A stretch of 64,000 nt of DNA from an uncultured Chromatiales bacterium (GTDB lineage Bacteria > Pseudomonadota > Gammaproteobacteria > SZUA-140): contig CAYLYS010000001.1 of assembly GCA_964388175.1 (NCBI GenBank), positions 908 to 64,907 on the forward strand, written 5' to 3'. Below are positions 2,305 to 33,079 of this stretch, piece after piece. Every line of letters begins with the position of its first letter. The stretch's first letter is position 1. The position numbers and the translations under genes are program-made. Under the pieces are notes generated by a model. It did no database searches. It saw only the letters and a list, made by a program, of their open reading frames with translations, and was not told where the DNA came from.

Positions 2305-2312
2305 CGGCTCCC

Positions 2313-18279: not shown

Positions 18280-19052
18280 GATTGTTCTTTTTGCTGCTGT
18301 TGCTGATGAATGTCGCGTTTTATATCTGGCATGAGCCCATCGTCGCCTGGATGAAGGGGGATGCGCCCGTTGAGCGGACCGTGACGCGGAGCGAGACGAT
18401 GCCATCGCTGGTGCTGCTGAGCGAACGCGATGCGCCGCGCAGCGAACCGGCGGCGCGACAGGATGCGCCCGCCAAACCGCCGCCGCAGGCGGCGGGTTTG
18501 CCCTCGCCTTCGGTGCAGGCCGACTTTCCGCCGGCGGCGGTCTCGTCTGCTGCGCGGGCGGAGACCGCCGCCGCGCTTCCCGCGGGACAATGTATCGAAG
18601 TCGGCCCCTACACCGATGCCGCACTGGCCGCAGCGGCGCGGTCGAGCGCCGAGAGCGCCGGCATGAAGGCAGGGCTGGAGCGCGTCGAACGCGATATGCC
18701 TGCCGGCTACTGGCTGTTGACCGAGGAGCGTTACAATCTGGCCGGCGCGCGCGACATCCTGCGGCGCATGGGTGAGGACGGCGTCGATGATATCGCCATC
18801 GTCTCACTCGACAGCGGCATGGCGATATCGCTCGGTCTTTACAGCCGTTCCGCGGCGATGGAGCGTCGCCGACGCGAACTGGTCGAACTCGGCTACCCGG
18901 TCGAGGTGCGCCAGCGCTCCGAGCGGCGCGAAGTGCAGGTGCTTCATCTCGCCACGGCCGCCGGCGCCGATGCGCAGGCGGTGAAGGCGCTGCTCACCGA
19001 CCTGGTCAGCGCAGAACCGCGTCTGGAATGGCGAGACACGGCGTGTCGCTGA
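18276..19052 (+). CDS. SPOR domain-containing protein
   Basis: N-terminal TM segment, Pro/Ala-rich linker and a C-terminal SPOR-like domain. Conserved position after birA-coaX. Confidence 0.65.
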   Translation: MRLFFLLLLLMNVAFYIWHEPIVAWMKGDAPVERTVTRSETMPSLVLLSERDAPRSEPAARQDAPAKPPPQAAGLPSPSVQADFPPAAVSSAARAETAAALPAGQCIEVGPYTDAALAAAARSSAESAGMKAGLERVERDMPAGYWLLTEERYNLAGARDILRRMGEDGVDDIAIVSLDSGMAISLGLYSRSAAMERRRRELVELGYPVEVRQRSERREVQVLHLATAAGADAQAVKALLTDLVSAEPRLEWRDTACR

Positions 19053-19086
19053 CGGAGCTCTGCTATAATTTCCCGGTTTCCGCATC

Positions 19087-19162
19087 GCTGGCGTAGCTCA
19101 GTCGGTAGAGCAGCTGATTTGTAATCAGCCGGTCGGGGGTTCGATTCCTCTCGCCAGCTCCA
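19087..19162 (+). tRNA. tRNA-Thr (anticodon UGU)
   Basis: 76-nt cloverleaf: acceptor GCTGGCG/CGCCAGC, D-arm GCTC-AGTCGGTA-GAGC, anticodon loop TTTGTAA (anticodon TGT), T-loop TTCGATT, 3' CCA. Its 3' 48 nt are repeated exactly at 32761-32808. Confidence 0.9.
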
Positions 19163-19199
19163 ATACTTAGATCACTTATCCACAGATCACGAAGCGCCT

Positions 19200-19217
19200 G
19201 TGGACCACTCTTGGACC
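19200..19217. repeat. 18-bp motif GTGGACCACTCTTGGACC (copy 1, attL-proximal)
   Basis: Near-identical copies occur at 19278-19294 (inverted) and 32626-32643 (direct, attR-proximal). Candidate integrase/RDF arm sites. Confidence 0.5.
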
Positions 19218-19277
19218 GATCGCCGGGAACATTCCACCATCAGCCACAGCAGAAACGCACGTTTTTTGCTGCTCATT

Positions 19278-19294
19278 GGTCCTGGAGTGGTCCA
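19278..19294. repeat. inverted copy of the arm motif (GGTCCTGGAGTGGTCCA)
   Basis: Reverse complement is TGGACCACTCCAGGACC. Lies between the tRNA and int. Confidence 0.5.
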
Positions 19295-19541
19295 TATGAG
19301 AAGGAGATAGGTTTTAACCTATTAATATTTATCGTAAATAATCCTGTATTATCCTGATTATATATCAGATGTTGCCCGCTATCGCAGCTTACGGTAACGT
19401 GTAATATCTAGAAAAAAGCAGGCCCCGGAGACGCTGGAACGTCGCCCGAGGCCTTGACCACGACAACCCGTCAGGAGGTTGTGATGGCGTCTCGCCAGCC
19501 TACCCGCCGCAGTCGCTCCGCGCCACCCAAGGCGCGCTGAC

Positions 19542-20684
19542 ATGGCGACCATCGACAAACGCACCGACAGCAAGGGCGTCTCCATGTACCGGGTGCGCGT
19601 TCGGATGAAGGGCGTTCCGCAGCAGGTGGCATCCTTCCGCAGCCTGACCAAGGCCCGTCAGTGGGCATCGGCGACCGAAACCGCTATCCGTGAAGAGCGC
19701 CACTTCCCGACCAGCGAGGCAAAGCGCCACACCCTGGCCGAACTCATCGATCGCTATAAACGCGACGTGCTGAGCGCGAAGAAGCCCAAGACGGCTCGTC
19801 ACCAGGGTCAGCAACTTGATTGGTGGAAGGGTCAGCTCGGCGCCTACAGCCTGGATAAGATCACGCCGGCGAAGGTGTCGGAGCATCGGGACAGGCTGCT
19901 TCAAGAACCGATACCAGGCCCCGACGACAAGCCGCCAAGATACCGCGGGCCGGCGACGGTCGCCCGGTACATGGCGGCGCTCTCCCACGTGTTCACCATT
20001 GCGGTGAAAGAGTTGGGATGGGTTCAGGAGAATCCATTCGCCAAGGTCAGCAAGCCCAAGGAGCCCGGCGGCCGCGTTCGGTTCCTGTCTGATGATGATC
20101 CCCTTCCGAGCGGCGAGATCTTTGAGGGCGAGCGCACGCGCCTCCTGAAGGCGTGCAAGGAGAGTTCGAGCCCGGATCTGTATCCCGCGGTCGTGCTGTC
20201 TCTCAGCACCGGTGCCCGCAAGATGGAGTTGATGGGGCTTCGCTGGCGTCAGGTTGATCTGGTGCGCGGCATGATCACCCTCGAAGACACCAAGAACGGT
20301 GAGCGTCGGGCGCTACCGCTGGCCGGGCATGCGCTCGAACTGATGCAGGCCCGCGCGAAAGTGCGTCGGCTCGATTGCGATCTCGTTTTCCCGAACCCTG
20401 CGGATCTCGCTAGGCGTGAGAAGAACCCGGCGCACGTCGTGCGTCCCGTGGATCTTCGCGCGCCCTGGGAAGCGGCCCTGGCCGCTGCCGGCATCGAGGA
20501 CTTCCGCTGGCATGACCTTCGGCACTCTGCTGCTTCCTACCTCGCCATGTCCGGTGCATCGCTTGCGGAAATCGCCGAAGTGCTCGGGCACAAGACCCTT
20601 GCCATGGTGAAACGGTACAGCCATCTGTCTGACGCGCACGTCGCCCGCGTGGTGGCGAAAATGAACAGCCGGGTGTTCGGATGA
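19542..20684 (+). CDS. int: tyrosine-type site-specific recombinase / phage integrase
   Basis: 380 aa with a C-terminal catalytic domain carrying HDLRHS (HxxR) and VKRYSHL (Tyr nucleophile). About 380 bp from the tRNA. Confidence 0.9.
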   Translation: MATIDKRTDSKGVSMYRVRVRMKGVPQQVASFRSLTKARQWASATETAIREERHFPTSEAKRHTLAELIDRYKRDVLSAKKPKTARHQGQQLDWWKGQLGAYSLDKITPAKVSEHRDRLLQEPIPGPDDKPPRYRGPATVARYMAALSHVFTIAVKELGWVQENPFAKVSKPKEPGGRVRFLSDDDPLPSGEIFEGERTRLLKACKESSSPDLYPAVVLSLSTGARKMELMGLRWRQVDLVRGMITLEDTKNGERRALPLAGHALELMQARAKVRRLDCDLVFPNPADLARREKNPAHVVRPVDLRAPWEAALAAAGIEDFRWHDLRHSAASYLAMSGASLAEIAEVLGHKTLAMVKRYSHLSDAHVARVVAKMNSRVFG

Positions 20685-21865
20685 ATGCGAAGCGCCCAAA
20701 GCCGAAGCGTCCAGAATCTTCCGGGGTCAACCAGGATCTGTGGGACTTTTGGGATCGGTACGAGGACAAGAAGGCGGATCGCAAGGAATGGGATGCGGTG
20801 CAAACGCCTACCGCAACTGATAAGGCGCTCAAGGAAACCCGTCTTGCGGATCTGGACGCTGAGCTCGCGAAGCTCGACGAGGAATATCAGTGCTTTGTCA
20901 GGCGCGCTCAGGATGCTGATCAAACTACGAACCTGTCTGGGCGGGATTGCTTTACGCTCGGCGTGCTGGCCGCGCGCTGGAACGTGGCAGAGCATGATGT
21001 ATTCCGATGGGCCAGCAGTGGCGCATTGCCCACCGTGGTGCGTCCCGATGCACCGGAATCACTACATGGCGTGTCGTCTGAACTCCTGGAAGACGTGGTG
21101 GCCGCGCGGGTACTGCTGGTGTCGCGCGAGGACCGTGACCGATTCGAAGTGGCGCTACCCAACTACGTGACGCACGCCGCAATGGAGGCGAGCGCCAAGT
21201 GCGGCGGCTTGAGCGTCGAAGCGTGGGCGGAACACTCGGGTCAGAAGATTGCTCCAACCACGGAAGGCGGGCGCTTCGTGAGCGGCACGCTGGAAGAAGC
21301 GGCACGCGCGCTGGCTAGGCAGGAAGGGTGGCATGACGGTGCGCTCGATACCCTTTTGAAGCAGATGGTTCAGGCGGTCAAGGACGGAAGTCTGACCGCG
21401 CGCCATCCGCATACCGGCATACCTTATCGCCCTGATCCCGTGCGCACGTTCTACGAGTTCGTCACCGCGGTGGACGTGAACGTCTGGCTCGCGAGCCAGG
21501 CGGTGGACTACCGGATGGAGACAGGCGGGAGCGGCGAAGCGCCAATGGATGTCAACGTGTGCCAACGCAAGGACGCGGGGCCAGCGAACGGCGCGGTCGC
21601 CAATGATTGGTTGGAAGACGACAGCCTTCTGAAAATTGAGAGGCAGCAGCGCGCCATCTTGGAAGTGATCACCATGAAGAGGTGGGATCCTATGGCCGTG
21701 CCGGATGGCGAAAAGGGAACCATCCGTCAGATATGCGAGGAGGATGATAGGTATAGGGATCTGTTCTCTGCCACATCTTTCGAGCGTGCATGGAGCGCCG
21801 GTGTTCGTGCCGATCCGCCCAAGTGGCGGATGCAGAGTCACGCATCTTTCGCCAAGGGAAAGTAG
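20681..21865 (+). CDS. hypothetical protein (island)
   Basis: 394 aa with no recognisable domain. Start overlaps the int stop by 4 bp (ATGA), suggesting translational coupling. Confidence 0.5.
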   Translation: MNAKRPKPKRPESSGVNQDLWDFWDRYEDKKADRKEWDAVQTPTATDKALKETRLADLDAELAKLDEEYQCFVRRAQDADQTTNLSGRDCFTLGVLAARWNVAEHDVFRWASSGALPTVVRPDAPESLHGVSSELLEDVVAARVLLVSREDRDRFEVALPNYVTHAAMEASAKCGGLSVEAWAEHSGQKIAPTTEGGRFVSGTLEEAARALARQEGWHDGALDTLLKQMVQAVKDGSLTARHPHTGIPYRPDPVRTFYEFVTAVDVNVWLASQAVDYRMETGGSGEAPMDVNVCQRKDAGPANGAVANDWLEDDSLLKIERQQRAILEVITMKRWDPMAVPDGEKGTIRQICEEDDRYRDLFSATSFERAWSAGVRADPPKWRMQSHASFAKGK

Positions 21866-21992
21866 CAGGGAGCCCGCGACACCTACGAACACCCACGAAC
21901 ACCTACTTCCCTCGCTATCGTACGCCTACTCCCGCCTCCCGGATGATGTGCCGTAGCCAGCGATTGCTGGCGAAAATGTGAGGCGCATCATT

Positions 21993-22196
21993 ATGACTGA
22001 CGTAAATATGCTCACCGTCGCGCAGCTCGCTACGCGGCATCCAGCGTTCTCGCAGGCATCCCTGCGGCACTGGATATTTCATTCCGAGAATAACGGCCTG
22101 GCCGCATCCGGGGCGCTGATTCGTTTGGGCCGGAAAATCCTGCTTGATGAGGCGGCGTTCATTCGCTGGGTGAAGTCGCACCGGGCATGCGCGTGA
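21993..22196 (+). CDS. AlpA-family / excisionase-like helix-turn-helix DNA-binding protein
   Basis: Short protein with LTVAQLATRHPAFSQASLRHWI ... GRKILLDEAAFIRWV, typical of AlpA/Xis HTH_17 regulators of satellites and prophages. Confidence 0.65.
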   Translation: MTDVNMLTVAQLATRHPAFSQASLRHWIFHSENNGLAASGALIRLGRKILLDEAAFIRWVKSHRACA

Positions 22197-22356
22197 GGCT
22201 GCCGAAAATGAAAACGCCCGGCGGCAACCGGGCGTCGAGAGAGCAAAGCAAATCCAGGACCAATCGTAACCGCCAGCACAGCCAAGCGCAACCGGGTATC
22301 CCGCAGAGCACGGAGCAATGGCTGGCGTTCGTTCGGCGTGCTGCGAGGGACGGCCG

Positions 22357-23223
22357 ATGAGCGCGGATATCCTGCTGTCCCGCTTGGAGGGGGTCCGGGA
22401 TCGCGGTCACGGCCGGTGGATGGCGTCGTGCTGCTCCGGGCTGCATGATGATCGCAATCCGTCGCTGTCGATCCATGAAACCGCCGACGGAACCGTCCTG
22501 ATCAAATGTTTTGCGGGGTGTAGTGCCGCCGAGATCGTGGCCGGCGTCGGCCTCACGCTCGCGGACTTGTTCCCGGAGAAACTGACCCACCATCGGGCAC
22601 CGTTGCGAAATCGTGTTCCGGCGGCTGATCGCGAACTGATCGAGCGCGCCAAGCGGCAAGAGCAGGCCGAACGCGAGCGCAGACATGCCGACGCAGCGGA
22701 CAGGGCTCGCACACTCTGGGAGCGCGCACAGCCCGCCACAAGCCACGGATACCTGACGGCCAAGGGAATCAAGCCTTACGGCGCCCGCACGCTCTCCGGG
22801 CTTCTGGCGCTGCCGGTGCAGGACTTCGACGGACAGATACACAGTCTCCAGTTCATCGCCGGCGACGGTGGCAAGAAGCTGCTTTCCGGCGGGCAGAAGA
22901 AAGGCCGCTTCATCTCCGTTCGGTGGACGGGTGCGGACCGGCTGCTGATCTGCGAGGGCTTCGCAACCGGCGCAAGCTTGGCCGAGATTGAGCAGGGCTC
23001 CGACGTGCTCGCGGCCATCGATGCCGGCAACCTGTTGCACGTTGCCTGTGAGGCTCGCAGGCGCTTTCCTGGGCGCGAGATCGTCATCTGCGCGGACAAT
23101 GACCCGGTTGGCGTTGAGAAGGCACACGCGGCCGCTGCTGCGTCTCGGGCACTGGTGGCCATTCCCGAGACCGAGGGCGCGGACTTCAACGACATGCACC
23201 GCCGGGAGGTGGCCGCATGGTAA
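22357..23223 (+). CDS. DNA primase (P4-alpha-like zinc-ribbon + TOPRIM domain)
   Basis: Zinc ribbon CC-H...C-x-x-C (ASCCSGLHDD...IKCFAGCS) followed by a TOPRIM acidic pattern (LLICEGFATG ... IVICADNDPVG ... GADFNDM). Start set at MSADILL. Confidence 0.7.
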   Translation: MSADILLSRLEGVRDRGHGRWMASCCSGLHDDRNPSLSIHETADGTVLIKCFAGCSAAEIVAGVGLTLADLFPEKLTHHRAPLRNRVPAADRELIERAKRQEQAERERRHADAADRARTLWERAQPATSHGYLTAKGIKPYGARTLSGLLALPVQDFDGQIHSLQFIAGDGGKKLLSGGQKKGRFISVRWTGADRLLICEGFATGASLAEIEQGSDVLAAIDAGNLLHVACEARRRFPGREIVICADNDPVGVEKAHAAAAASRALVAIPETEGADFNDMHRREVAAW

Positions 23224-24776
23224 CGATCAATGCGATTCCTCCGGTGCAGGAGGAGCAGCCCCAAGAGGAAAAGGAGCGGAAGTCGGCGTCCACGACCCTG
23301 GTGGAGCTGGCGCTGGAGCACTTCAGTTTCGGCGTCTCAACGATGGGCGAGACGTTCGCCATACCGAAGCAAGGGCCGAAGATCGTTGCCATGCTTCGCG
23401 GCGCGAAGACGTCATTGCGGGGGCAGTTGTCCAGGCTCTACTTCAGGAGGTGCGGTCGGGCTGCGCCGCAACAGGCGCTTGCCGACGCTTTGCTGGTCAT
23501 CGAAGGTATGGCGCAGGAAAGTGACGAGGAGGAGCTGTATCTGCGCGTCGCCCGTCACGGTGATGATCTTTGGCTGGATCTGGGAGACCAGACGGGTCAG
23601 GCCGTTCGCATCAATTCGGCAGGATGGGAAATCGCCGCGCCGCCGGTGCTGTTCAAGCGGACCGCTCTTATGGGGGCGCTGCCGGCGCCGTCGCGAGGGG
23701 CCACGCTCGATAATCTGTGGGGCCGCCTTAACATCGCCGAATCCGATCGCCCGCTGGTGGTCGCGTCTCTCGTCGGAGCGCTGCATTCAGACATCCCGCA
23801 TCCCGTTCTCGGGATCCTTGGCGAGCAGGGATCGGCCAAGACGACGGCGACGAAGATCCTGGTTTCAATCCTTGATCCCGGACCTGTTCCGCTTCGCAAG
23901 CCGCCGCGTGATGCCGATGGCTGGGTGACGGCGGCGGCCGGATCCTGGGTGGTGGCGCTCGATAACCTGAGTGCGGTTCCGGACTGGCTGTCGGATTCGA
24001 TCTGCCGCGCTGTTACCGGAGATGGAGACGTCCGACGAAAGCTCTACACCGACGGGGAGCACGCCGTCTTCGCGTTCCGTCGCGTCATCCTGATAAACGG
24101 GATCGACCTGGGGGCCCTGCGCGGGGATCTGGGGGAGCGAATGCTGCCGCTTCACCTGGAGCGCATCCCGGACGATGCCCGCCGCCTGGAGCGTGACATC
24201 TGGAGTGCGTGGGATGAGGCCCATCCCGCCATCCTCGGAGCCGTCCTTGACGTGGCAACGAGTGTGACGAGGGTGCTTCCCTATGTCCGTCTGGAGACCA
24301 AGCCGCGCATGGCCGACTTCGCGGTGATTCTCGCGGCCGTCGACAAGGTGCTGGGGACGAACGGACTGGCGCACTACCTCGGGAAGCAGAAGTCTCTCGC
24401 GGCCGATTCTCTCACCGGCGACCCGTTCATCATTGCCATGACTGCGTCAGTCACGACGACGTTCTCTGGCCGGGCGGCCGATCTGCTGGCCCGGCTTCGA
24501 AACGACAGACCGCCGAGGGGCTGGCCAACCAACGCGCGCGCCGTCACCACAAAGCTCAAGCGTCATGCGCCGGCTCTACGGCGCGCCGGCTGGCAGATCA
24601 GCGATGACGGGGGCCGAAACATCGGCAACACGGTGATCTGGACCATTGTTCATCCTGAGATGGTCGGTAAACATCCCTCGTTTGACTCGTATCCTCGTCC
24701 TGATACCCCGGATGACGAGTCAACGAGTCAAACGAGCCAGGAATACGGGCAATCTCAGGAAGAGGTGGTGCTATGA
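23217..24776 (+). CDS. P-loop ATPase, putative replication helicase (primase C-terminal / D5-like)
   Basis: Walker A-like GEQGSAKTTATK, and a DExx-like VVALDN. Lies immediately after the primase, with a 7-bp overlap. Confidence 0.55.
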   Translation: MVTINAIPPVQEEQPQEEKERKSASTTLVELALEHFSFGVSTMGETFAIPKQGPKIVAMLRGAKTSLRGQLSRLYFRRCGRAAPQQALADALLVIEGMAQESDEEELYLRVARHGDDLWLDLGDQTGQAVRINSAGWEIAAPPVLFKRTALMGALPAPSRGATLDNLWGRLNIAESDRPLVVASLVGALHSDIPHPVLGILGEQGSAKTTATKILVSILDPGPVPLRKPPRDADGWVTAAAGSWVVALDNLSAVPDWLSDSICRAVTGDGDVRRKLYTDGEHAVFAFRRVILINGIDLGALRGDLGERMLPLHLERIPDDARRLERDIWSAWDEAHPAILGAVLDVATSVTRVLPYVRLETKPRMADFAVILAAVDKVLGTNGLAHYLGKQKSLAADSLTGDPFIIAMTASVTTTFSGRAADLLARLRNDRPPRGWPTNARAVTTKLKRHAPALRRAGWQISDDGGRNIGNTVIWTIVHPEMVGKHPSFDSYPRPDTPDDESTSQTSQEYGQSQEEVVL

Positions 24777-25138
24777 GGGCCGTACTCGACCGCCTCGCCG
24801 CGCTCGGCATCCGTGTCCGCCTGACCAAGGATATGCGCCTGTCTCTCTCGCCGGTTCCGCCGCCGGACCTGGTCGACGACGTGCGGTCCTGCCGCGACGA
24901 GATAATTCAGCACCTGATCCGCACTCGCAACGCCGAGTCCCGTATCCGTAATTGGCTCGCTCATATCCGTGAAACCGACCCCGGCGTTATCGACGAGGTG
25001 CTGGGGAAATGCGCAGCCGACCCCGAGGCGTTGGCGTACTTCATGACCCGAGCCGCCGAGGTGCCGCCGATCAAGCGTGTGGCCGGGCGGACGGTTCATG
25101 GCGCGGAAGTGGTGACGGGGGGAACCGGCGATGCCTGA
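24773..25138 (+). CDS. hypothetical protein (island)
   Basis: 121 aa. Start overlaps the upstream gene by 4 bp (ATGA). Confidence 0.4.
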   Translation: MRAVLDRLAALGIRVRLTKDMRLSLSPVPPPDLVDDVRSCRDEIIQHLIRTRNAESRIRNWLAHIRETDPGVIDEVLGKCAADPEALAYFMTRAAEVPPIKRVAGRTVHGAEVVTGGTGDA

Positions 25139-25337
25139 CATCCGGACATTGCTTGCCCAGGCCCATGCGCTGGAGCAGGCCGCCCGGCAGCGGCGCCGGG
25201 AGGCAGGCGCCCAGCTCGCCATCCTGCGCGACCAGACCCCGGTCCTGGAGTGGCATCCCCGGCTTGAAGCCCTCGGGCTCGATGTCCGCTCGGCTGAGGT
25301 TCTGATCGGCATGGCGACCGGGAGCGAAGCGCCATGA
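25131..25337 (+). CDS. hypothetical protein (island)
   Basis: 68-aa ORF packed tightly within the operon. Confidence 0.3.
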   Translation: MPDIRTLLAQAHALEQAARQRRREAGAQLAILRDQTPVLEWHPRLEALGLDVRSAEVLIGMATGSEAP

Positions 25338-26242
25338 CTGGCAAGGCGGTGAGGATGTCACCCAAGGGTGACAACGCGGCAAGTGACGCTCTGCCGGCGA
25401 CGGTTGAGGAGCTGAGCGCGGCCCTGGCTGCCATCTTCGAGGATGCCCGCCAGCGAGCTGTCTACCTTGTGGACGCCTACGCACATGCAGCCGGCGAAGC
25501 GTGTGAATCTATCCACATCGCCGAGCGCCAACTGCGCGCCATCAAGCCAGCCGGCGAGTCGGCCGAGTGTACCACGGTACACATTACCGAGCGCGAGGCC
25601 CGCGACATCAAGACGGTGAAACGGCTCTACTGGCCGCGCTCCGATCTCTACACCCTTGCTTGGAATGCCATGGTGGCATTTCACGCTGAGCGGCGCCGGC
25701 GCCCTGGCACACGCGAACTGCTCAGACGCATGCAGGCACTCGATTCAGATCACCGTCCTGTATTGCTGCGCCTTGAAAGGGAAACGATTCACTGGATCGA
25801 CGACGCGAGCCGCGCCAATAGCTTTCTTCGCCAGATGCCGGAGATGCTCCTTTGCGCGCTGGTTGAAAGAGATGACGAAAGGGTCGCTGAAATACACGCC
25901 CGGCGCGATAACGCCGATCGAGCGCTTAGAGATATCGAGTGCTCGGGGAGGCTGATCGATGCTTACCGGAAAATGGCCGGCAAGGTAGGCCGCGACCTCG
26001 GCGAATACTGGGGTATTCCAAGCGACGCCGATTTCCTGTCCCAATGGCCTTCCTTCCTGACGCAGGGTCTTCTGGGAAATTCAGAAGCGAGGCGGGAGAC
26101 GGAGCGCGCAGAACCCCGGGAAGGTGGCGTGGCCATTCCGGTCATGCTCGACGGAGCATCGCCCTTCCTTGATGGGCCGGCGGTGAGCGAGATGCCATCG
26201 GCCATTCAGTTCCCGTCATTTGAGATCAAACACTACCCCTGA
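25334..26242 (+). CDS. hypothetical protein (island; immediately upstream of terS)
   Basis: 302 aa with no recognisable domain. 4-bp overlap with the preceding ORF. Confidence 0.5.
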   Translation: MTGKAVRMSPKGDNAASDALPATVEELSAALAAIFEDARQRAVYLVDAYAHAAGEACESIHIAERQLRAIKPAGESAECTTVHITEREARDIKTVKRLYWPRSDLYTLAWNAMVAFHAERRRRPGTRELLRRMQALDSDHRPVLLRLERETIHWIDDASRANSFLRQMPEMLLCALVERDDERVAEIHARRDNADRALRDIECSGRLIDAYRKMAGKVGRDLGEYWGIPSDADFLSQWPSFLTQGLLGNSEARRETERAEPREGGVAIPVMLDGASPFLDGPAVSEMPSAIQFPSFEIKHYP

Positions 26243-26254
26243 GGAGGAGGGCGC

Positions 26255-26776
26255 ATGAAGGCAAAGAAGAGCGCTCCGAGAGCCAAGGCGGGCACGTCGA
26301 AAGCCCCGCAGCGAGGGAAGGGATGCGACCAGACCAAGACCAGGCCGATGATTGGCAGGCCGCGCCAGTTTCCTGATGAACAGATCGAGCAGGCGTTTTC
26401 TCTGATGGCGGAGGAGGGCGTGTCGCTCAAGGCTGCGTGCCAGGCTGTCGGGATTGCCTATGACGCGACGCGGCAGAGGATATATAACGATCAGCGCCTT
26501 TCTTCCCTGCACGCGCGCGCGAGAGAGGATTACCTGGACGTGCGCGTGCAGGAAATGAACGAGATTGCCAAAACAGAGCCGGACGTTCAGCGCGCCCGCC
26601 TGATGTGCGACAACATCAAATGGGAAGCCGCCCGCGTCCTGCGCAAGAAGTACGGCGACCGCTTGGAGGTTGACCAGAACATCAATAACGTGAAGTCCCT
26701 GTCGGATGAGGACCTGGAGCGTGAAATCAATGCGTACATTGCGAAGATCGCAGAAGAGCGAGCTTCGGGGGCTTGA
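26255..26776 (+). CDS. terS: terminase small subunit (P22 gp3-like, GP3_package family)
   Basis: GRPRQFPDEQIEQAF...ARLMCDNIKWEAARVLRKKYGDRLE parallels P22 gp3 (GRNPKFESPEALWAAC...; RAKL..D.RKW.LSK..PKKYGDK). Confidence 0.7.
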   Translation: MKAKKSAPRAKAGTSKAPQRGKGCDQTKTRPMIGRPRQFPDEQIEQAFSLMAEEGVSLKAACQAVGIAYDATRQRIYNDQRLSSLHARAREDYLDVRVQEMNEIAKTEPDVQRARLMCDNIKWEAARVLRKKYGDRLEVDQNINNVKSLSDEDLEREINAYIAKIAEERASGA

Positions 26777-26994
26777 CGCAGCCGAGGACGGCGAGGCATA
26801 GTTTCCGCACGGGGCGTAGCAACCCCTCACGTAGCGGATACCGCACCCGTCAGCCAAGCGGTATTTTTATGCCTGTCTTCCAGGCAGTTCGGTTTATGCC
26901 GGGTGTCCGTCCGAATACAACAGCCTTCGCGCGAATAGGCGGGCCGTCTACGTGCGGTGCTACCCACCCGGCACCCATAACCGGAGGAACTGCC

Positions 26995-27273
26995 ATGACT
27001 GACCAAGCCGCCACCATCGATGTCACCCGCAGCGCTGTCGCAGCCGTCTGCGCGGAGCTGAACCGCCTGGAGCAGGAAACAGACGCTTCGTCCTTCAAGG
27101 AAGTGATCGAGTATCTGCGCGACAGCGGCTACGCCGTCACTGAACTGCCGAACGATGGCGGGTATGGCCTTCTGGCCGTCAGCCTGACAGAGCGCGGCCT
27201 GCGTCGCCTGGCGGCTCTTGAGAAGCTGAGTGATCTCGCCATCGAGGCGCAGGACTGCGGAGGTGACGCATGA
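26995..27273 (+). CDS. hypothetical protein (island)
   Basis: 92 aa. A GGAGGA RBS precedes MTDQAATIDV, which is an internal start within called ORF 26773..27273. Confidence 0.45.
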   Translation: MTDQAATIDVTRSAVAAVCAELNRLEQETDASSFKEVIEYLRDSGYAVTELPNDGGYGLLAVSLTERGLRRLAALEKLSDLAIEAQDCGGDA

Positions 27274-27620
27274 GCGCCGGGCAGGATTCGCCGGCTAGGC
27301 GTGTGCGCTCTGTAGTCAGCTACGCCGTAGCGGTCGAGCAGGATAACCGCCTGATGCATCTGACGCCGTATATGATTAGCCCAGTGGCCGCAGAGAGAGC
27401 CTTAGAAGAGCTTAAGCCTGAGCATCCCGCGGCGCACGTTGTCGAGAGAGTTCGCGAAACGGTTGTGGATGACTCCCTCTCTTCGCGCCCTAGCTCTTCA
27501 ATTCAGGCGTCCGGCCGACAGATTCCATGCTTTTCCATGGAGGAGGCGGGAAGGCTGGTTGATGCCGGAATGCTGTGCGAGGCGATTGATCGGTTCAACG
27601 AGGACGCTGATAGACGCTAA
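27270..27620 (+). CDS. hypothetical protein (island)
   Basis: 116 aa. ATGA overlap with the upstream gene. Confidence 0.4.
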   Translation: MSAGQDSPARRVRSVVSYAVAVEQDNRLMHLTPYMISPVAAERALEELKPEHPAAHVVERVRETVVDDSLSSRPSSSIQASGRQIPCFSMEEAGRLVDAGMLCEAIDRFNEDADRR

Positions 27621-27702
27621 AGGCGGCTATCGAGAAGAAGCGTGATGCACTACCCGCCCGGACCGGCACCGGGCGGGCACCCCTTCCCCTGTACGCGACA
27701 AG

Positions 27703-27999
27703 GTGACCGAATTGAACCGACCTCCCGCCAAGCTTGGGCGCAAAACCCTGTCGATCCTGGTGCAGGCCATCATCGACCAGCTCGAATACGAGTTTCCCCC
27801 GGCTGATGGCTACGACATTGCCGAGATTATGCTGTGGCGCCGGGTCATCTATCAGGCGATCCGGGATGCTGCTGAGGGCGATCAGGAAGCCCGCCAGTTC
27901 TTCAGCACGGAGGATCTCAAGGAAATATCCGACCGTGCCGCTCTGGATCCTGAGGCAGTCCGCCGGCGGGTGAAGGCGCAGGGCTGGGTTGTGCTATAA
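27703..27999 (+). CDS. hypothetical protein (island)
   Basis: 98-aa acidic protein. Confidence 0.4.
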   Translation: MTELNRPPAKLGRKTLSILVQAIIDQLEYEFPPADGYDIAEIMLWRRVIYQAIRDAAEGDQEARQFFSTEDLKEISDRAALDPEAVRRRVKAQGWVVL

Positions 28000-28052
28000 C
28001 AGCGCAAAGAAGAGGGCGCCGCCCAGAGCCGGGCGACGAAACGGGAGGGTTC

Positions 28053-28835
28053 ATGAAGCTGTTTCTGCTCGCCGCTGCTGCGGTTCTTTCGGGATGCGCT
28101 ACGCCGCTTGTTCAAAACTTCTGGGGCGAGTCGACCGCCCCGGGTATGGCCTATGAGATGTCGATCGATGCGCTGGCCGCACGAACGCAGGCCCAGCCCC
28201 GCAGCTACATCATCTTCCCCGGAAATGACGATGTAGAACTTAGCGATCTCCAGTATCAGGAATACGAAACGTACCTGGTGCGCGCTCTGGAAATTCGCGG
28301 GTTCGAGCCCGCCGGGAACCCGGAAGATGCGAAAATCGCCGTCGCGTTCATGTATGGCATCGGAGAACCGGTGATCACGGAACGGACCTATATGCGGCCG
28401 ATCCGGGGAAAGACAGGTATCGCGTCCTCAAAGACCACCGGAGACGCGACGAGCACAGAACGCTACGGGCGCCGCAGCGTCTCATACTCTGAGACGACGA
28501 CCTACACGCCGTCGTATGGGGTTATTGGCTATGTGCCGGAGACTAAAACGACCGTGTCCTATATCCGGCACGCGATTGTGATTGCCTACGATCTCTCCGA
28601 GTATCTCGCGACCGGAAAGGAGGTCGAGCTGTGGAGGACAGTGGTGCAGAGCGAGGGGCCGACCGACGACCTGAGGCGCGCCATGCCGGTACTGATCGGC
28701 GCCGCCGCTGAGCACATGGCAACAAGCACGGGGAAGAGGCTATCCGTTCGCATGTCGGAGAATGCGCCGGTGGTTCGTGCCGTGCGTGGAGAGGTCACGA
28801 TAGACGCTTCCCAAGCGATCAATCACGCGCCCTGA
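28053..28835 (+). CDS. lipoprotein (island moron)
   Basis: Signal peptide with lipobox LSGC, 260 aa, no known domain. Confidence 0.55.
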   Translation: MKLFLLAAAAVLSGCATPLVQNFWGESTAPGMAYEMSIDALAARTQAQPRSYIIFPGNDDVELSDLQYQEYETYLVRALEIRGFEPAGNPEDAKIAVAFMYGIGEPVITERTYMRPIRGKTGIASSKTTGDATSTERYGRRSVSYSETTTYTPSYGVIGYVPETKTTVSYIRHAIVIAYDLSEYLATGKEVELWRTVVQSEGPTDDLRRAMPVLIGAAAEHMATSTGKRLSVRMSENAPVVRAVRGEVTIDASQAINHAP

Positions 28836-28900
28836 GATCCATCCCGGCTTCTGGACAGAATGACCAGAAGTCCACGACCGCAGATCACGGTATTATCGAA

Positions 28901-29263
28901 TCACCTGACCTGAACGTCGACCTCATACTTTTGCGTGGGAGGGAATGCCTCCAGCCACAGCTTCTGCTGCCGCATGTATTCGTCTTCGTCAGCAAGCCAT
29001 TCCTGCAAAACCGCCGGCTGGCCGGTGAACACCATGTAGTAAGGGATGTATCCCTTCCAAGGCTGTTGAAGCGAGTATTTCCAGATCCACCGGTCGGCGA
29101 TGAACTGCGTCTGAGAGGGTTCGCCCAGGACGGCTTTCACTTCATCCGGGGTCATGCCTGGCGCGAGTTGATTGGTTTTTGATACCGAGCCGAAGCCGCC
29201 CACCCCAGTAGCACAGCCCGCAATGAACGCGAAGAGCAACAGCAGCGCTAAACACCTTTTCAT
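28901..29263 (-). CDS. lipoprotein with BamE/SmpA_OmlA-like fold (island moron)
   Basis: MKRCLALLLLFAFIAGC lipobox, followed by GMTPDEVKAVLGEPSQ, resembling the BamE N-terminal motif. Start reassigned to the internal Met. Confidence 0.5.
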   Translation of the reverse strand: MKRCLALLLLFAFIAGCATGVGGFGSVSKTNQLAPGMTPDEVKAVLGEPSQTQFIADRWIWKYSLQQPWKGYIPYYMVFTGQPAVLQEWLADEDEYMRQQKLWLEAFPPTQKYEVDVQVR

Positions 29264-29345
29264 AATGCGACCCCTTCTGTCGGAACCTAGATCGGCCGCC
29301 GTAGCGCGCCTACCGCGAAAGCATGTTATTCCATCGGCACGGTAA

Positions 29346-30071
29346 TTGGTGGATTTAGGCGGGGAATCGCAGCGACATAGCCCGAAAGTATTAGGGCGGG
29401 ATCCGCCTGAGTTAATGCGAAGCGCCGCCGACTGGATCGACGCCAACCAGCTCGGGCGGCGCAATCTCACGCCGGATGCGTTCAAGCTGCTGCTGGGGAG
29501 AAGGTATAACCGGGCGAAGAAGGCGCAGACGGATGGCGGCAAAGGCACCGCCAAGCAAACCGTAGATCAAATTGATCCACGGTTATCCACCGCTCAGTCA
29601 CTCGCCCAAACCCACGGCGTCAGCGAAGCGACGGTGAAGCGGGCCGGCTACAAACTCATGCAGGACGATCGCATCTAGGCCGTCATCGAGCAGGGGCGCG
29701 CCGAGCTCCTGGAAGAGCTGAAGATGGAGCGTGACACCATCGCTCGGGAGATGGCCGCGCTCGGGTTCGCCAGCATGGGGGATTACATCGAGATCGATGC
29801 GGACGGCTCTCCCCGCTTCAAGCTCGGCGAGCTGACGCCAGCGCAGCTCCGCGCCATTCAGGAGATCATCATCGAGGAGCCGGCGACCGGGGGCCGGAAG
29901 GTTCGCCTGAAACTCCATGACAAGCGCGCTGCTCTGGTGGATCTGGCCAAGCTGCTCGGGTTTCACCGCGAGGTTTATCTGTACGGCCAGGCCTCGGGGC
30001 AGGGCGACGCGCCGGCGGTGCCGTGGATCGTTCAGCCTGTCGCGCCGGCGCCGGGCGCTGGCCCACGCTAA
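29346..30071 (+). pseudogene. terminase small subunit (Terminase_2/P27 family) interrupted by in-frame amber codon
   Basis: ORFs 29346..29678 and 29724..30071 share one frame, separated by TAG at 29676-29678. Read through, the product shows an HTH (GVSEATVKRAGYK) and the C-terminal motif GGRKVRLKLHDKRAALVDLAKLLGF typical of TerS. Confidence 0.55.
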
Positions 30072-30227
30072 CTTCGGCTGGTCATCCCGGGTGTCGGAGG
30101 CGGGTGGCCTCGGTTATGCGTTAGTCTGTCCCCCCGATTTGTCCTAAAATGCGTTCGTCGGTATGACGGCGTGTGTGCCCATGCTCGGGCAACGAGTTAT
30201 ATGGCGGGGATCTGGGGAGGGTGGCAG

Positions 30228-31076
30228 ATGGAAGCGAGACTAAAGCTCAAATACCTCGGCCCAGCAGTTGAAGAAGGGCTAATGGACGTCTATCAGGCGT
30301 CCGCGAACATGATTGCTTTCAGCGAATTCATGGTTGTTGCTGCTAAGGCAGCATATGGGGAGAAAATTGAGGCTCGGGCGGAAGTCGCGGGATTTGGTCG
30401 CGGCTCATTCATTACTCATCTCGTTTTCAGCTTTGCTGGCCCCATAGCTACTATTATTTCTGCTGCGACACCAGACCATCTACTGCGCATTACCAATGAT
30501 GCGTTTCACATATGGAAGCACCTGAGAGGATACCCAGCAAAGACTATCGAGCAAACCGATGGTCAGATGGTAAATGTTACAAACAATGATGGGGATATTG
30601 TTCAGGTTCGTATCGAATCGCTTCAGATCGTATTCAACGAGAAAGCGACGGATGCGGCTGGTCAGTTTGTCAGAGCGCAGCTATCCAATAGTGGTTTTGA
30701 TGGATTGAAGGTTGAGTCTGACAAGGGCGTTGTCGCCGAAGTAGATCAGGATGATGCTAATTCCTTCAGGGCTGTTGTTACGTCGGAATCAATCACGGAT
30801 ACGGCGATGGATGTTACGCTTATTCTTGAGGCGCCAGTGTTCAAGGATGGAAATAAGTGGCGCTTCAGTGATGGGCAAACCTCATTCTACGCCGATATTG
30901 TTGACCGGGAATTTATGGCTCGCGTAGATGCCGGAGAGCTTTTCGGGAAAGGGGACTGGCTGAGGGTTAGTTTAAGGTTGGTTCAGGATCGATCAGGGGC
31001 GAAAATCACGACCGAACGCACGGTGCTCAAGGTTTACGAGCACAGGAGGGGAATGGATCAGAACAAGTTGTTTTAA
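30228..31076 (+). CDS. hypothetical protein, cargo gene A (no recognisable domain)
   Basis: 282 aa, start at MEARLKLKY preceded by a GGAGGG RBS. Lies in the lower-GC block. Beta-rich C-terminal two-thirds. Confidence 0.55.
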   Translation: MEARLKLKYLGPAVEEGLMDVYQASANMIAFSEFMVVAAKAAYGEKIEARAEVAGFGRGSFITHLVFSFAGPIATIISAATPDHLLRITNDAFHIWKHLRGYPAKTIEQTDGQMVNVTNNDGDIVQVRIESLQIVFNEKATDAAGQFVRAQLSNSGFDGLKVESDKGVVAEVDQDDANSFRAVVTSESITDTAMDVTLILEAPVFKDGNKWRFSDGQTSFYADIVDREFMARVDAGELFGKGDWLRVSLRLVQDRSGAKITTERTVLKVYEHRRGMDQNKLF

Positions 31077-31425
31077 GTGCGCCCAGAAGACCGCGTGGCC
31101 GCAGGTGCCGCCGAGCTCGCTGATAGCCGCTTTGGCGAGCTGATCATGTCCTGCGCGTAGTGAAGGCTGGTCAAGGTGCTCGGCCATCGTCGCCAGGGCG
31201 GCGGCGTCGATCAGGTTGCGGTGGGCTCGGTCGTATTCGTTGGATTAGATCGGTGTCGCGCTGACTGTTTCGTCGGTTCCTTCCTTCTAAAGCTTGGCTA
31301 CCGCCGACAATCTTGCCTGCCCGCAATACAGAATAAGAAAATTCGTTGTTCCGGCCGACAATAATCTAAATAAAGAAATTATTGCTTCTCTGGACGTGAG
31401 TGAGGCGATTCTTGTGGGAGGGGGG

Positions 31426-32385
31426 ATGTTATCTAGTGCAAGCTGCCGTCGAATATTCAACGGTTTTATGCGGCGATGCGACAACTTTCTAGATCGACCA
31501 TGGGTAATTTTTCTGGGGCCGATGGTTATAGTCGTGCCTTACAGCTTCTTGCTCGCTTATTTTCAGATTGAACAGTTCCAAAGTGGCGTCCAAAAGCACC
31601 TCCCCTTGATTGCTGGGTTTGTTGACGGAAGCCCGGTTATGATCATTGTGTTGGCAACGATTTACTTTTATTCTTTCCCCGCATTCGATAGATTTGTGCG
31701 TGCGTACAATCGAAATAATGGGATAGATGCTGGTTCGGCCCTTAAGTTATTCAAAGTATTAGAGGAAATTGTTGGCGCCAAAGATCGTCGTTTTGGAATC
31801 ACGACGTCGAAAGTCGTGGCGGGTGAAAACATAAGCCCTGATCAGGCTTTTGATACGATTACCCAACCGCACCAGCAAATAGCTCTTCTAGTACAAGGTG
31901 TTCATACGTTTTTTGACGCAATTAATTCCAAAAACGTAAAGTTGCGAGTCAGTGCGGTTACGATCAGAGATGGAGCGCCCGATTGTTGGTTGTATTACTG
32001 GCCGACAGGTGATCCTCCTCGAACACCAATTGAGATTTTGAGGTCACCTGACAGTAGTATTTGTACTGCGGTTCGTAAGAGAAAGCTTGTCGTTATTGAG
32101 GATAGGCAGAAGGAAACTAGAAATGGCGGCGGGCACGTATGGAAAGACGCTGGCGTTGACGCTGGCGTTGAGGGATCGTTACTATGCTACCCTGTTTGGC
32201 ACCATTATACGACTACGATCCCGTATGTCCTGACTATTGTCGCCGACGAAAAGGGTTATTTTCGCAACGCCCAAGTTGAGCTTTATGAATGGATTCTTCG
32301 GCATTTTGCTGTTCGGATTGGCTTGGAACACAGCTTAGTCCTCCTTAAGGAGAGGGCTTGCGGAGAAGATCATGGCAAAGCTTAA
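31426..32385 (+). CDS. hypothetical membrane protein, cargo gene B (2 N-terminal TM helices + cytoplasmic domain)
   Basis: A GGGAGG RBS precedes MLSSAS. TM1 is WVIFLGPMVIVVPYSFLLAYF and TM2 is VMIIVLATIYFYSFPAF. The ~200-aa C-terminal domain resembles a GAF-like fold only weakly. Lower-GC DNA. Confidence 0.55.
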   Translation: MLSSASCRRIFNGFMRRCDNFLDRPWVIFLGPMVIVVPYSFLLAYFQIEQFQSGVQKHLPLIAGFVDGSPVMIIVLATIYFYSFPAFDRFVRAYNRNNGIDAGSALKLFKVLEEIVGAKDRRFGITTSKVVAGENISPDQAFDTITQPHQQIALLVQGVHTFFDAINSKNVKLRVSAVTIRDGAPDCWLYYWPTGDPPRTPIEILRSPDSSICTAVRKRKLVVIEDRQKETRNGGGHVWKDAGVDAGVEGSLLCYPVWHHYTTTIPYVLTIVADEKGYFRNAQVELYEWILRHFAVRIGLEHSLVLLKERACGEDHGKA

Positions 32386-32557
32386 GCAAATACGCGGTAA
32401 GTCTACAAACAGATCGTCTTCGATGACGGTTCCGTCAATCATTGTGTTGGATGCTGATACGCTTGAATCCAGTCGACGGATCAACGCCAAAAAAATCAAG
32501 AAATCTGTTAAGACTGATTTAGCAATTCTTAGAAAACATAGCTTCCAATCTGGGTAA
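32372..32557 (+). CDS. small basic protein, cargo gene C (61 aa)
   Basis: A GGAGA RBS precedes ATG. Overlaps the end of gene B by 14 nt. Lys/Arg-rich. Confidence 0.35.
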   Translation: MAKLKQIRGKSTNRSSSMTVPSIIVLDADTLESSRRINAKKIKKSVKTDLAILRKHSFQSG

Positions 32558-32760
32558 GCTAATGGGCGAAGAGCTTTAATCTGTATCCTTGATCGTTGCT
32601 GACTCCAGCAATTCCCCGCAGTTCCGTGGACCACTCCTGGACCGCTTGCCCGCAAAAAACGGCCGTAATCGACGACAATTCACCATTGCGACGGGACTGT
32701 AAGGCGCTGATAGTTCTGCGGTATATTGTTGCCTATTAGCGTCGCTTATAGTGCGGCCGG

Positions 32761-32808
32761 GATTTGTAATCAGCCGGTCGGGGGTTCGATTCCTCTCGCC
32801 AGCTCCAA
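32761..32808. repeat. attR: 48-bp direct repeat of tRNA-Thr 3' half
   Basis: GATTTGTAATCAGCCGGTCGGGGGTTCGATTCCTCTCGCCAGCTCCAA is identical to 19115-19162. No 5' half of a tRNA precedes it. Confidence 0.9.
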
Positions 32809-33079
32809 TCTCAAGATCGTTCCGCTGACACAGGAAGTGGCTCAGGCAATGCCGGGCTGCTCTTTCCTATCGCGTTGCTCTCATTGCGGTTTCGCAGGAT
32901 GAAAACGGCGTCGCTGATGATGACGCTGGCTTCCTGGGTGACGGGGTTTGTGCCGGTCAGGCTTGCGGCCTCGTCCGCGGGCGTTTGCTCCGCCGCAGCA
33001 CACTATCTATGATAGCGTCATGTCGAGCGCGCGGGCGGGCCGCGCGGGGTTCGCCGACTGCCTGCAAGCCAGTAGGGAG

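Follow-up and report, generated by a model that had tools for sequence, protein, structure and literature searches.

Phage-inducible chromosomal islands (PICIs) have a SatelliteFinder model of five core components, namely an integrase gene (int), a regulator, a primase-replication module (pri-rep), a capsid-morphogenesis gene and a small terminase gene (terS), and the Type B class comprises elements with four of these (PMC10085698). The replication origins of PICIs consist of two iteron sets that flank a spacer, immediately 3' of rep, and the satellite P4 relies on the cos site of its helper (PMC6092414). For the VEIMEs (virion-encapsidated integrative mobile elements), which are marine, the small terminase proteins (TerS) resemble those of co-occurring environmental phages (PMC9618062), and the replicon of the plasmid pFP11 consists of repA and iterons (PMC3583192). 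Here we describe an island of ~13.6 kb at a tRNA-Thr(UGU) gene of an uncultured Chromatiales bacterium (GenBank assembly GCA_964388175.1, contig CAYLYS010000001.1). The window, by which we mean the whole stretch of DNA that was analysed, is 64,000 nucleotides long (positions 908 to 64,907 of the contig), and all positions below are those of the window. Judging from its sequence, this island is probably a phage satellite of the PICI type in integrated form, and failing that an element with exactly the same construction. An earlier note on the same DNA had proposed a phage-satellite-like island at this tRNA gene, and five lines of evidence support the proposal: exact attachment (att) repeats, use of the same att site by related integrases, a Pri-Rep-type replication module, a TerS gene without a large terminase (TerL) gene, and the lack of structural genes.

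An island bounded by exact repeats at a tRNA-Thr gene

The one tRNA gene that ARAGORN and Rfam find in the 64 kb is tRNA-Thr(TGT), and its 3' end recurs at the far side of the island. A repeat finder with exact extension gave a 49-bp direct repeat matching at 49/49 positions (19116-19164 = 32761-32809), which includes the encoded CCA and has its right edge 2 nt beyond the CCA end of the tRNA. The island at tRNA-Thr(UGU), bounded by perfect repeats, is thereby confirmed; the repeat had been given in the earlier note as 48 bp at 19115-19162, and its exactness stands with the size and start corrected. The repeat grows to 58 nt at 93% identity when mismatches are allowed. Because the att repeat is the only source of 25-mers present twice in the 64,000 bases, a chance repeat is excluded. 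A search of the island for an additional att-like remnant found none. The principal features, from the integration site through the small terminase and its neighbours, together with the distal att copy, are as follows.

19087-19162 (+): tRNA-Thr(UGU), the integration target (ARAGORN; Rfam RF00005, 69.8 bits)
19116-19164 (no strand): attL core, exact 49-bp repeat, made up of the 3' 47 nt of the tRNA and 2 nt more
19165-19541 (+): region from attL to int, with motifs conserved in two related islands, putative arm and operator sites and a putative translational coupler of int
19542-20684 (+): tyrosine integrase, 380 aa (PF00589 2.6e-27; phrog_1 1.6e-66)
20681-21865 (+): 394-aa orphan, "X", translationally coupled to int, its start overlapping the int stop (ATGA)
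22008-22196 (+): 62-aa winged helix-turn-helix (HTH) protein, candidate excisionase or AlpA-like activator
22318-23223 (+): DNA primase, CHC2 zinc ribbon plus Toprim (PF13362 Toprim_3 2.3e-15; phrog_2249 1.6e-55)
23217-24776 (+): predicted replicative helicase/initiator (Rep) of superfamily 3 (SF3)/D5 type, 519 aa, with Walker A GEQGSAKT (AlphaFold2 model and Foldseek)
24654-24759 (no strand): 106-bp symmetric element, putative replication origin, within the top inverted repeat of the island
24773-25337 (+): pair of small conserved genes downstream of the helicase gene, encoding 121 aa and 68 aa and matched in position by genes of the related loci L016 and L017
25334-26242 (+): 302-aa orphan directly upstream of TerS, no family match
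26255-26776 (+): small terminase (TerS) of the Sf6 gp1 family, intact (PF20901 3.3e-13; phrog_1482 2.9e-20)
26773-27999 (+): three small open reading frames (ORFs; 166, 116 and 98 aa), no matches
32761-32809 (no strand): attR core, second copy of the 49-bp repeat, with no tRNA 5' half upstream

The tRNA-Thr gene is intact at attL and present as a partial copy at attR. We propose that integration took place by recombination, through the tyrosine integrase, between a 49-bp attP and the tRNA gene's 3' end, which would have rebuilt the tRNA at attL and left the partial copy at attR. The empty attB junction would then read as the tRNA 5' half ending in GCAGCT, followed by GATTTGTAATC...CAGCTCCAAT and by CTCAAGATCGTTCCGCTGAC, and the circular attP junction as ...AGTGCGGCCGG followed by GATTTG...CCAAT and by ACTTAGATCACTTATCC. 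The G+C content of the island is 0.59-0.65, compared with 0.67-0.70 in the flanks, and goes down to 0.46-0.53 at 30.0-32.5 kb. All substantial genes of the island but one lie on the plus strand, and we expect transcription of all but that one to run rightward from the integrase end, as in Gram-negative PICIs.

Both flanks are housekeeping. On the left are bactofilin, birA, coaX and a gene for a 258-aa protein; on the right are genes for a BNR/Flg_new_2 protein, a LysR regulator, a Prx-Grx hybrid and a Pyr_redox-family disulfide oxidoreductase (glutathione-reductase-like). Ten larger ORFs elsewhere in the window were sampled, and none of them was phage-like. Within the island, no ORF matched a capsid, portal, protease, tail, holin, endolysin, TerL, relaxase or type IV secretion system (T4SS) family in Pfam, PHROG, PADLOC or NCBIfam, and no partition gene was detected by family searches. 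Structural, lysis and TerL genes, which are the forbidden components of the PICI definition, are thus missing from the island and its flanks, with the caveat that NCBIfam gives ORF 30171-31076 the name "putative phage structural protein". The earlier note's statement that the island has no capsid, tail or large-terminase genes is borne out by these searches. Were the island instead one arm of a complete prophage, its structural genes should lie outside the repeats, a possibility raised in that note. There are none beside the island, and since the flanks are housekeeping it is not part of a full prophage in this window, a reading that we regard as refuted here and highly improbable. Its sole hint is the NCBIfam name just mentioned, against which stands the occurrence of that gene in phage contigs as a reverse-oriented moron rather than as a core structural gene.

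We looked for the empty site in other genomes. An exact look-up of the LysR flank gave no match. The CoaX flank has an identical copy on one 1.7-kb Logan contig (L001, SRR16797981), the sole identical flank in public assemblies, which covers 17358-19122 and ends inside the tRNA at 19122; this break more likely reflects tRNA k-mers common to species than the att repeat. In GTDB genome contigs, the best CoaX relatives are 39-42% identical (from Luteibacter and a gammaproteobacterial metagenome-assembled genome, MAG). We attribute the failure to find an empty attB to the lack of any close relative of the host in the collections searched. JGI metagenome 3300044603 contains a piece of the island in identical form (L115).

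The best available substitute for an empty-site comparison is the reuse of the att site by two other islands, L113 and L114, which are Logan contigs reached through homologues of the 62-aa winged-HTH protein. In L113 (8,411 bp), the integrase is 79% and the HTH protein 73% identical to those of the island; the contig has the final 26 nt of the att core at its beginning and the first 30 nt of that core at its end, termini that a k=31 assembly of an element bounded by the att repeat would give. It has the int-X-HTH module without a recognisable replication or packaging gene. L114 begins in the 3' half of tRNA-Thr and encodes an integrase, an X protein and an HTH protein that are 80%, 41% and 68% identical to their island counterparts, and its cargo includes a DnaB helicase and a 218-aa TerS of the Terminase_2 family that is not followed by TerL. 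The HTH gene comes after int and X in both. The three islands therefore have a common integrase and tRNA-Thr site and different cargo, such that one integrase/att module is paired with at least three replication and cargo sets, which illustrates the modularity of such elements.

The catalytic motifs of the tyrosine integrase are readable (ARxxE, HDLRH, LGH and RYSH), and its profile matches confirm the assignment made in the earlier note; as the PICI definition has it, int lies at one end of the element and specific att direct repeats are its bounds. Upstream of int, a TGGACC motif is duplicated at 19201-19217, with two copies of a counterpart, TGGGGCAC, in both L113 and L114, and a palindrome, CTGATTATATATCAG (CTGAT-N5-ATCAG), at 19354-19368 is conserved across the three islands with this integrase. 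We consider the duplicated TGGACC/TGGGGCAC motif and the palindrome to be putative arm-type and operator sites. An upstream ORF of 18 codons (MASRQPTRRSRSAPPKAR; 19484-19540, +) with a GGAGG Shine-Dalgarno sequence stops 1 nt before the int ATG. An equivalent ORF with the same Shine-Dalgarno sequence precedes the L114 integrase (about 445-500) and is absent from L113; it may be a translational coupler or attenuator of int. The 394-aa X protein has no family match in Pfam, PHROG, PADLOC or NCBIfam and just five homologues among 5.8 billion proteins, one relative being the int-coupled gene product of L114. It belongs to the integrase module and is possibly a regulator or directionality factor.

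The small HTH protein was described in the earlier note as AlpA/excisionase-like, and the excisionase-like half of that description holds at the level of fold. The ORF as listed begins at a GTG at 21978, and metagenome gene calls begin at the Met at 22008. By sequence, the protein aligns over its full length to HTH_17 below threshold (E = 0.15, 12.7 bits against a 27-bit cutoff), with no match to Phage_AlpA, no BLASTP similarity to the bona fide AlpA of the related island L005 and no phmmer match among PDB sequences; it has six homologues only. Its AlphaFold2 model (predicted local distance difference test score, pLDDT, 86.6) has a strand, two helices, a beta-hairpin and a helix. Foldseek against the PDB returned generic winged-HTH regulators alone, with E above 0.3. 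The best BFVD match is an uncharacterised protein of a phage (template-modelling score, TM, 0.92; 40% identity; E = 4e-5), and further matches include many proteins named "Excise", "excisionase" or "HTH DNA-binding" (TM 0.55-0.77, weak E-values). The model thus suggests an excisionase-type winged HTH by fold only, with AlpA/MerR membership unproven. Upon helper infection or induction, this protein could promote excision, possibly with the int-coupled 394-aa protein, and could turn on the replication operon.

Replication genes and an origin-like element inside the helicase gene

The zinc-ribbon/Toprim primase and the P-loop replication ATPase of the earlier note both hold up. The primase has its zinc ribbon (C..H..C..C) around residues 37-68, is aligned to phrog_2249 ("DNA primase") over residues 28-297, and is 70% identical in the zinc-ribbon part to the product of a short gene upstream of the L016 helicase. 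The 519-aa P-loop protein encoded next to it has no match in Pfam, PHROG, NCBIfam or PADLOC. Its AlphaFold2 model, built from 24 sequences, has a mean pLDDT of 80, with a C-terminal tail predicted to be disordered (residues 482-519, pLDDT <50), and the top Foldseek matches in the PDB are SCCmec Cch (5dgk), monkeypox virus E5/vaccinia virus D5, NrS-1 and the primase-helicase of SaPI5 (7ola, TM 0.49-0.57), one of the Staphylococcus aureus pathogenicity islands (SaPIs). On this model, the protein would be an SF3/D5-type helicase of the SaPI/PICI Pri-Rep type, and the pri-rep component is represented by a Toprim primase with this helicase adjacent.

The helicase has more than 1,600 homologues, none with a Pfam domain of its own and many with an N-terminal fusion to Toprim, PrimPol or PriCT. 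Many relatives are ~60% identical, in Thioalkalivibrio, Woeseia, other gammaproteobacterial MAGs and Actinobacteria (Geodermatophilus and Longimycelium), and others are found on small Streptomyces plasmids, on a Methanothrix plasmid and in one Microbacterium phage. In IMG/VR, the family is present in six loci only, at no more than 43% identity. As an aside, the ~55-65% identity of the helicase between Gammaproteobacteria and Actinobacteria is unusual conservation for a mobile-element protein.

Loci with close helicase homologues have a left arm in common: int, a small int-coupled ORF, a small HTH gene, the helicase gene and a gene for 100-120 aa. The HTH protein is a Pfam AlpA in L005, a zinc-ribbon protein sometimes precedes the helicase, and the 100-120-aa product matches TubC_N in several loci, including the L016 counterpart of the island's 121-aa protein. 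The 121-aa and 68-aa proteins of the island are 54% and 72% identical to their L016/L017 counterparts, and the L016 helicase is 78% identical to that of the island. The right arm is variable. L004 (Thioalkalivibrio) has an HK97 capsid gene and a protease gene, L015 a capsid gene and L016 a portal gene, with no gene for a Pfam tail domain called in these three loci; L005, L007 and L014 have ParB-methyltransferase or restriction genes and no packaging gene. The same replication arm is thus common to elements resembling capsid-forming PICIs (cfPICIs), to TerS-only elements and to cargo-only elements.

A satellite does not follow from the replication module alone, since plasmids too are served by this helicase family. 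The main rival to a satellite is an integrative, self-replicating, plasmid-like genomic island that is independent of phages and in which TerS is inert phage-derived cargo. It draws on the presence of the helicase family on plasmids (Streptomyces pFP11-like and Methanothrix), on the three related loci with methyltransferase or restriction cargo and no packaging gene, and on L113, where the same int-X-HTH module comes without a recognisable replication or packaging gene. Nonetheless, we consider this alternative unlikely: the island TerS is intact, is covered almost end to end by its profile match and belongs to the rightward operon; L114, with the same integrase module, likewise has a lone TerS; relatives with the same helicase have capsid, protease or portal genes; and no relaxase, T4SS or partition genes were detected in the island.

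The strongest inverted repeat of the island (24650-24699 / 24714-24763) lies within the 3' coding region of the helicase gene. The 106-bp element at its core has outer inverted arms, CCTGAGAT...ATCTCAGG, and an iteron array at 24677-24736 in a 3+3 inverted arrangement with 8-9-bp spacing, in which three CTCGT iterons (24677, 24686 and 24694) face three ACGAG iterons (24715, 24723 and 24732) across a 16-bp spacer. It occupies the codons for helicase residues 480-515, which are predicted to be disordered. The same frame, of 106 bp or 97 bp, with the same outer arms is found in L016, L014, L035, L074 and L039, and the iterons change jointly on both arms: they are ACGAG/CTCGT in four elements and GGCGGG/CCCGCC in L074, with a mixed GC-rich set in L039. 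L004 and L005 have ACCCGCA/TGCGGGT arrays at the equivalent place.

We used an ungapped inverted-repeat scan in place of a strict exact-7-mer iteron test, which itself showed enrichment (11/80 compared with 9/395) and which missed the island's own element. Among 79 related loci, there are 19 whose best inverted repeat overall falls between -300 and +100 of the helicase stop, compared with ~4 expected by length, and in several further loci it falls just beyond that interval. Third-position identity in identical codons is 0.86-1.00 over codons 475-514 in the comparison with L016, where the gene mean is 0.57; in the comparison with L014, it is 0.78-0.91 over codons 471-500 (0.64 by 491-510), where the gene mean is 0.49. 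Synonymous change is suppressed across the element, which shows that it is constrained at the DNA level. We also considered whether the palindrome forms a hairpin or cruciform and rejected this: the iteron cores are separated by 3-nt linkers that do not pair, and symmetry is confined to these cores and the outer clamp, such that it is better explained by protein-binding sites.

The 106-bp element is likely a replication origin. It has the two iteron sets around a spacer, at rep, that characterise PICI origins, and here they lie inside the 3' coding region of rep itself. The palindromic origins used by SF3 helicases of eukaryotic viruses, such as SV40 large T antigen and papillomavirus E1, recall this layout. 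More broadly, we raise the possibility, which we hold tentatively and would not yet bet on, that satellite and plasmid replicons across bacterial phyla form a large, as yet unnamed family, with the island as one representative, in which a Pfam-less SF3-type helicase carries its own symmetric origin in the DNA encoding its tail (a 97-106-bp frame with 3+3 iterons), and specificity switches by joint replacement of iterons within a fixed CCTGAGAT/ATCTCAGG clamp. If true, this would offer a simple bacterial system for the study of double-hexamer loading and initiator-origin co-evolution, and a new marker gene with which to find satellites that escape current tools. The origin model is concrete and cheap to test, with natural specificity variants at hand and the iterons embedded in the initiator's own gene.

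Terminase genes, the putative helper and the right-end cargo

The small terminase had been called P22 gp3-like in the earlier note; it is a TerS, of the Sf6 gp1 family (PF20901) rather than of the P22 gp3 type. The gene provides the terS component of the PICI definition in intact form, and no TerL gene adjoins it. The protein is ~30% identical to the annotated TerS of Pseudomonas phages H66 and LKA5, 33% identical to the product of an unannotated ORF of Ralstonia phage C22, and 47-69% identical to the products of IMG/VR genes directly upstream of TerL (Terminase_3 or Terminase_6N). In the phage contig L026, a TerS relative stands beside TerL (Terminase_3) and a P22-type portal (3.8e-170). Because the closest TerS relatives adjoin TerL and a P22-type portal, they point to a headful-packaging, P22/Sf6-like helper, and the helper is probably a P22/Sf6-like podovirus. 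Three copies of the island would total 40.9 kb, which we take to be near a P22-type headful.

Two side observations concern these genes. In the IMG/VR contig L020, the TerL next to the TerS relative (760-3318, +) is a protein of 852 aa with an intein (Intein_splicing, LAGLIDADG_3 and Hint) before the ATPase domain. The third-best inverted repeat of the island (26503-26519 / 26539-26555) lies inside terS. In several pac-type phages and in SaPIs, the pac site is in or near terS, and by analogy this repeat is a candidate pac site.

The ORFs directly on either side of the small terminase gene lack family matches. The 302-aa orphan directly upstream of TerS has seven relatives among 1.84 billion representative proteins and recalls, by its position alone, the packaging-interference or capsid-morphogenesis genes that PICIs have at this place. 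Its relatives are separate proteins of ~180-190 aa that match either residues 1-159 or residues 146-302; the 302-aa gene may have arisen by fusion, or its relatives may be incomplete. Analogues of capsid-morphogenesis or interference genes could be hidden here and among the three small ORFs at 26773-27999.

The right end of the island has the following additional features.

28053-28835 (+): lipoprotein with lipobox LSGC, weakly DUF4136-like, accessory (PF13590 5.8e-5, below the Pfam cutoff)
28901-29263 (-): BamE/SmpA-like lipoprotein, 120 aa, accessory (PF04355 4.4e-5, 23.6 bits against a 23.2-bit cutoff)
29416-30071 (+): second TerS, Terminase_2 family, interrupted by an in-frame TAG at 29676-29678
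30171-31076 (+): PDC-S42/"LAPAL-motif" protein, candidate anti-phage defence gene or phage moron, low-G+C cargo
31294-32385 (+): 363-aa orphan, accessory, with two hydrophobic segments (~69-92 and ~102-131) and a G+C content of ~0.47

The second TerS, the palindrome in the helicase gene and the PDC-S42 gene were all overlooked in the earlier note. The second TerS is split into ORFs 29346-29678 and 29724-30071, in the same frame with the TAG between them. Read through, with the stop as X, it matches PF03592 across the stop, over residues 64-184 (1.6e-10, 42.2 bits against a 26.1-bit cutoff), and the C-terminal ORF alone gives E = 0.004. It is either a pseudogene or what remains of another satellite or phage, and the occurrence of a dead TerS together with a live one hints at an earlier recombination event with a different satellite or phage. 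The whole element might be a decaying, immobile satellite remnant, or a composite of two satellites, fixed in the chromosome. Besides the stop-interrupted TerS, the mosaic composition, with G+C down to 0.46 at the right end, and several orphan ORFs would fit such an origin. We consider it quite unlikely, given that the att copies are still identical at all 49 positions, that the integrase, primase, helicase and first TerS are full length with motifs intact, that the origin-like element is intact and symmetric, and that no internal att remnant marks a tandem fusion. For that last reason, we also rejected a tandem-island origin of the right arm.

We propose that the right third of the satellite is cargo of mixed origin, made up of the two lipoprotein genes, the dead second TerS, the PDC-S42 candidate and a gene for a low-G+C membrane protein. 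The signal peptide of the first lipoprotein was read from the sequence; the second lipoprotein gene, with its start set at MKRCLALL..., is the only minus-strand gene of the island. ORF 30171-31076 matches the PADLOC profile PDLC05015 (1.1e-46, residues 21-300), by which it is assigned to PDC-S42, as well as NCBIfam NF053583, "LAPAL motif-containing putative phage structural protein" (9.7e-58), and phrog_3243 (5.2e-43). In the phage contig L027, a 54%-identical homologue (2802-3650, +) lies between portal (758-2710, -) and TerL (3647-4957, -) genes; in L031, the gene and an adjacent minor head gene are on opposite strands, and in L028 it comes after a tail gene with which it shares a strand. 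These positions look moron-like, at odds with the "putative phage structural protein" name. Neither PDC-S42 nor a "LAPAL motif" is mentioned in the papers searched. PDC-S42 is a candidate single-gene defence system, which would fit the view of satellites as carriers of anti-phage cargo. The 363-aa orphan next to it has no family matches. A two-gene defence system comprising PDC-S42 and this neighbour was considered and is unsupported, because the two do not co-occur in IMG/VR loci. A promoter and terminator scan gave counts close to the shuffled expectation. Elsewhere in the window, a full-length class A RNase P RNA gene is present at 60504-60848 (+; RF00010, 348 bits), a housekeeping gene unrelated to the island.

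Comparison with described satellites and plasmids

Three of the five PICI core components (int, pri-rep and terS) are clear; a fourth, the regulator, is probable, and the capsid-morphogenesis component is unrecognised, such that the island is a candidate PICI-type satellite with four of the five if the regulator is counted as probable. Its life cycle as a satellite can be pictured as follows. Once excised, the circle would be replicated by the zinc-ribbon/Toprim primase and the SF3/D5-type helicase from the 3+3-iteron origin in the 3' end of the helicase gene. The Sf6-type TerS would then recruit the large terminase of the helper to island concatemers, for headful packaging into helper-made particles.

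Several observations weigh against a PICI-type satellite. The regulator is not recognisable as AlpA, MerR or Stl, given its below-threshold HTH_17 alignment and weak fold matches, and no capsid-morphogenesis or packaging-interference gene (ppi, rpp or cpm) was recognised among the island ORFs in Pfam, PHROG, NCBIfam or PADLOC. The putative origin has a central spacer that, in contrast to those of described PICI origins, is not AT-rich, and the helicase family serves plasmids too. One TerS is dead, a sign of some decay or mosaicism. Lastly, the 64-kb window contains no helper phage, and no empty attB of a close relative was found in the collections searched.

The island itself is one more PICI-like element and a modest biological surprise. 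It would extend satellite-type elements to a poorly sampled, uncultured, GC-rich lineage whose nearest CoaX matches are gammaproteobacterial. Its helicase family, for which neither Pfam nor PHROG has a model, could help to mark satellites and small replicons now overlooked by the programs that find viruses and satellites.

The pFP11-type theta plasmids of Streptomyces encode a helicase homologue that is ~41-43% identical to that of the island; in pFP11, its gene is located after a PrimPol gene and followed by a non-coding region rich in inverted repeats, and the homologue is possibly the RepA of this plasmid. Unlike the island, these plasmids are autonomous, have neither an integrase/att module nor TerS, and have their repeats outside the gene.

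The earlier note had assigned the island to a joint PICI/P4 type, of which the PICI half is favoured by the gene content described above. P4-like satellites resemble the island in having an integrase by the integration site, a small HTH protein, zinc-ribbon/Toprim primase and SF3 helicase functions, and iteron-type origin recognition, which is putative in the island. Of the P4 core, which besides psu, delta, sid and epsilon comprises alpha, alpA and int, the island has only int and a primase/helicase function. Unlike in P4, however, the primase and helicase of the island are not one alpha-like polypeptide, and TerS is present. Membership of the P4 type fails because equivalents of psu, delta, sid and epsilon were not recognised, no island ORF being annotated as a capsid-size or head-decoration gene in PHROGs or Pfam, whose profiles are general rather than P4-specific.

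SaPIs, like the island, have a Pri/Rep with an SF3-type helicase (7ola), an iteron origin adjoining rep (a putative one in the island) and their own TerS, which redirects the TerL of the helper for headful packaging, a role that the island TerS may also have. Unlike SaPIs, the island has no divergent Stl-type repressor and no cpmA/B or ppi homologues, and its layout is unidirectional in the Gram-negative style. The cfPICIs are approached by those relatives, with helicases 62-78% identical to that of the island, in which the same replication arm is followed by capsid and protease genes (L004), a capsid gene (L015) or a portal gene (L016); the island differs in having TerS only, without capsid, protease, portal, head-tail connector or TerL genes. 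VEIMEs, described in 2022, share with the island an environmental, uncultured host, an integrase, an AlpA/excisionase protein (a candidate one in the island), a primase/helicase and a TerS that is most like those of environmental phages, and likewise lack capsid genes; they are defined by concatemers recovered from virions (PMC9618062), whereas the island is known from sequence alone.

The closest likeness is to the Gram-negative PICIs, such as EcCICFT073 and PmCI172 (PMC6092414), and to PICI Type B of SatelliteFinder (PMC10085698). The island differs from Gram-negative PICIs in that its regulator is not a detectable AlpA or MerR protein, its primase and helicase are separate, its helicase family is without a Pfam model, its putative origin lies inside the rep coding sequence with a spacer that is not AT-rich, it has no recognised homologue of Ppi, Rpp or a capsid-morphogenesis protein, and its host is an uncultured GC-rich bacterium with the distant CoaX described above. 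Like them, it has a size of ~13.6 kb with int at the left end by the att site, and rightward, unidirectional transcription is expected (PMC6092414). Also in common are a small HTH protein as the probable regulator, a primase, a helicase/initiator, a putative iteron origin at the end of rep, TerS and right-end accessory genes, in an element free of structural and lysis genes.

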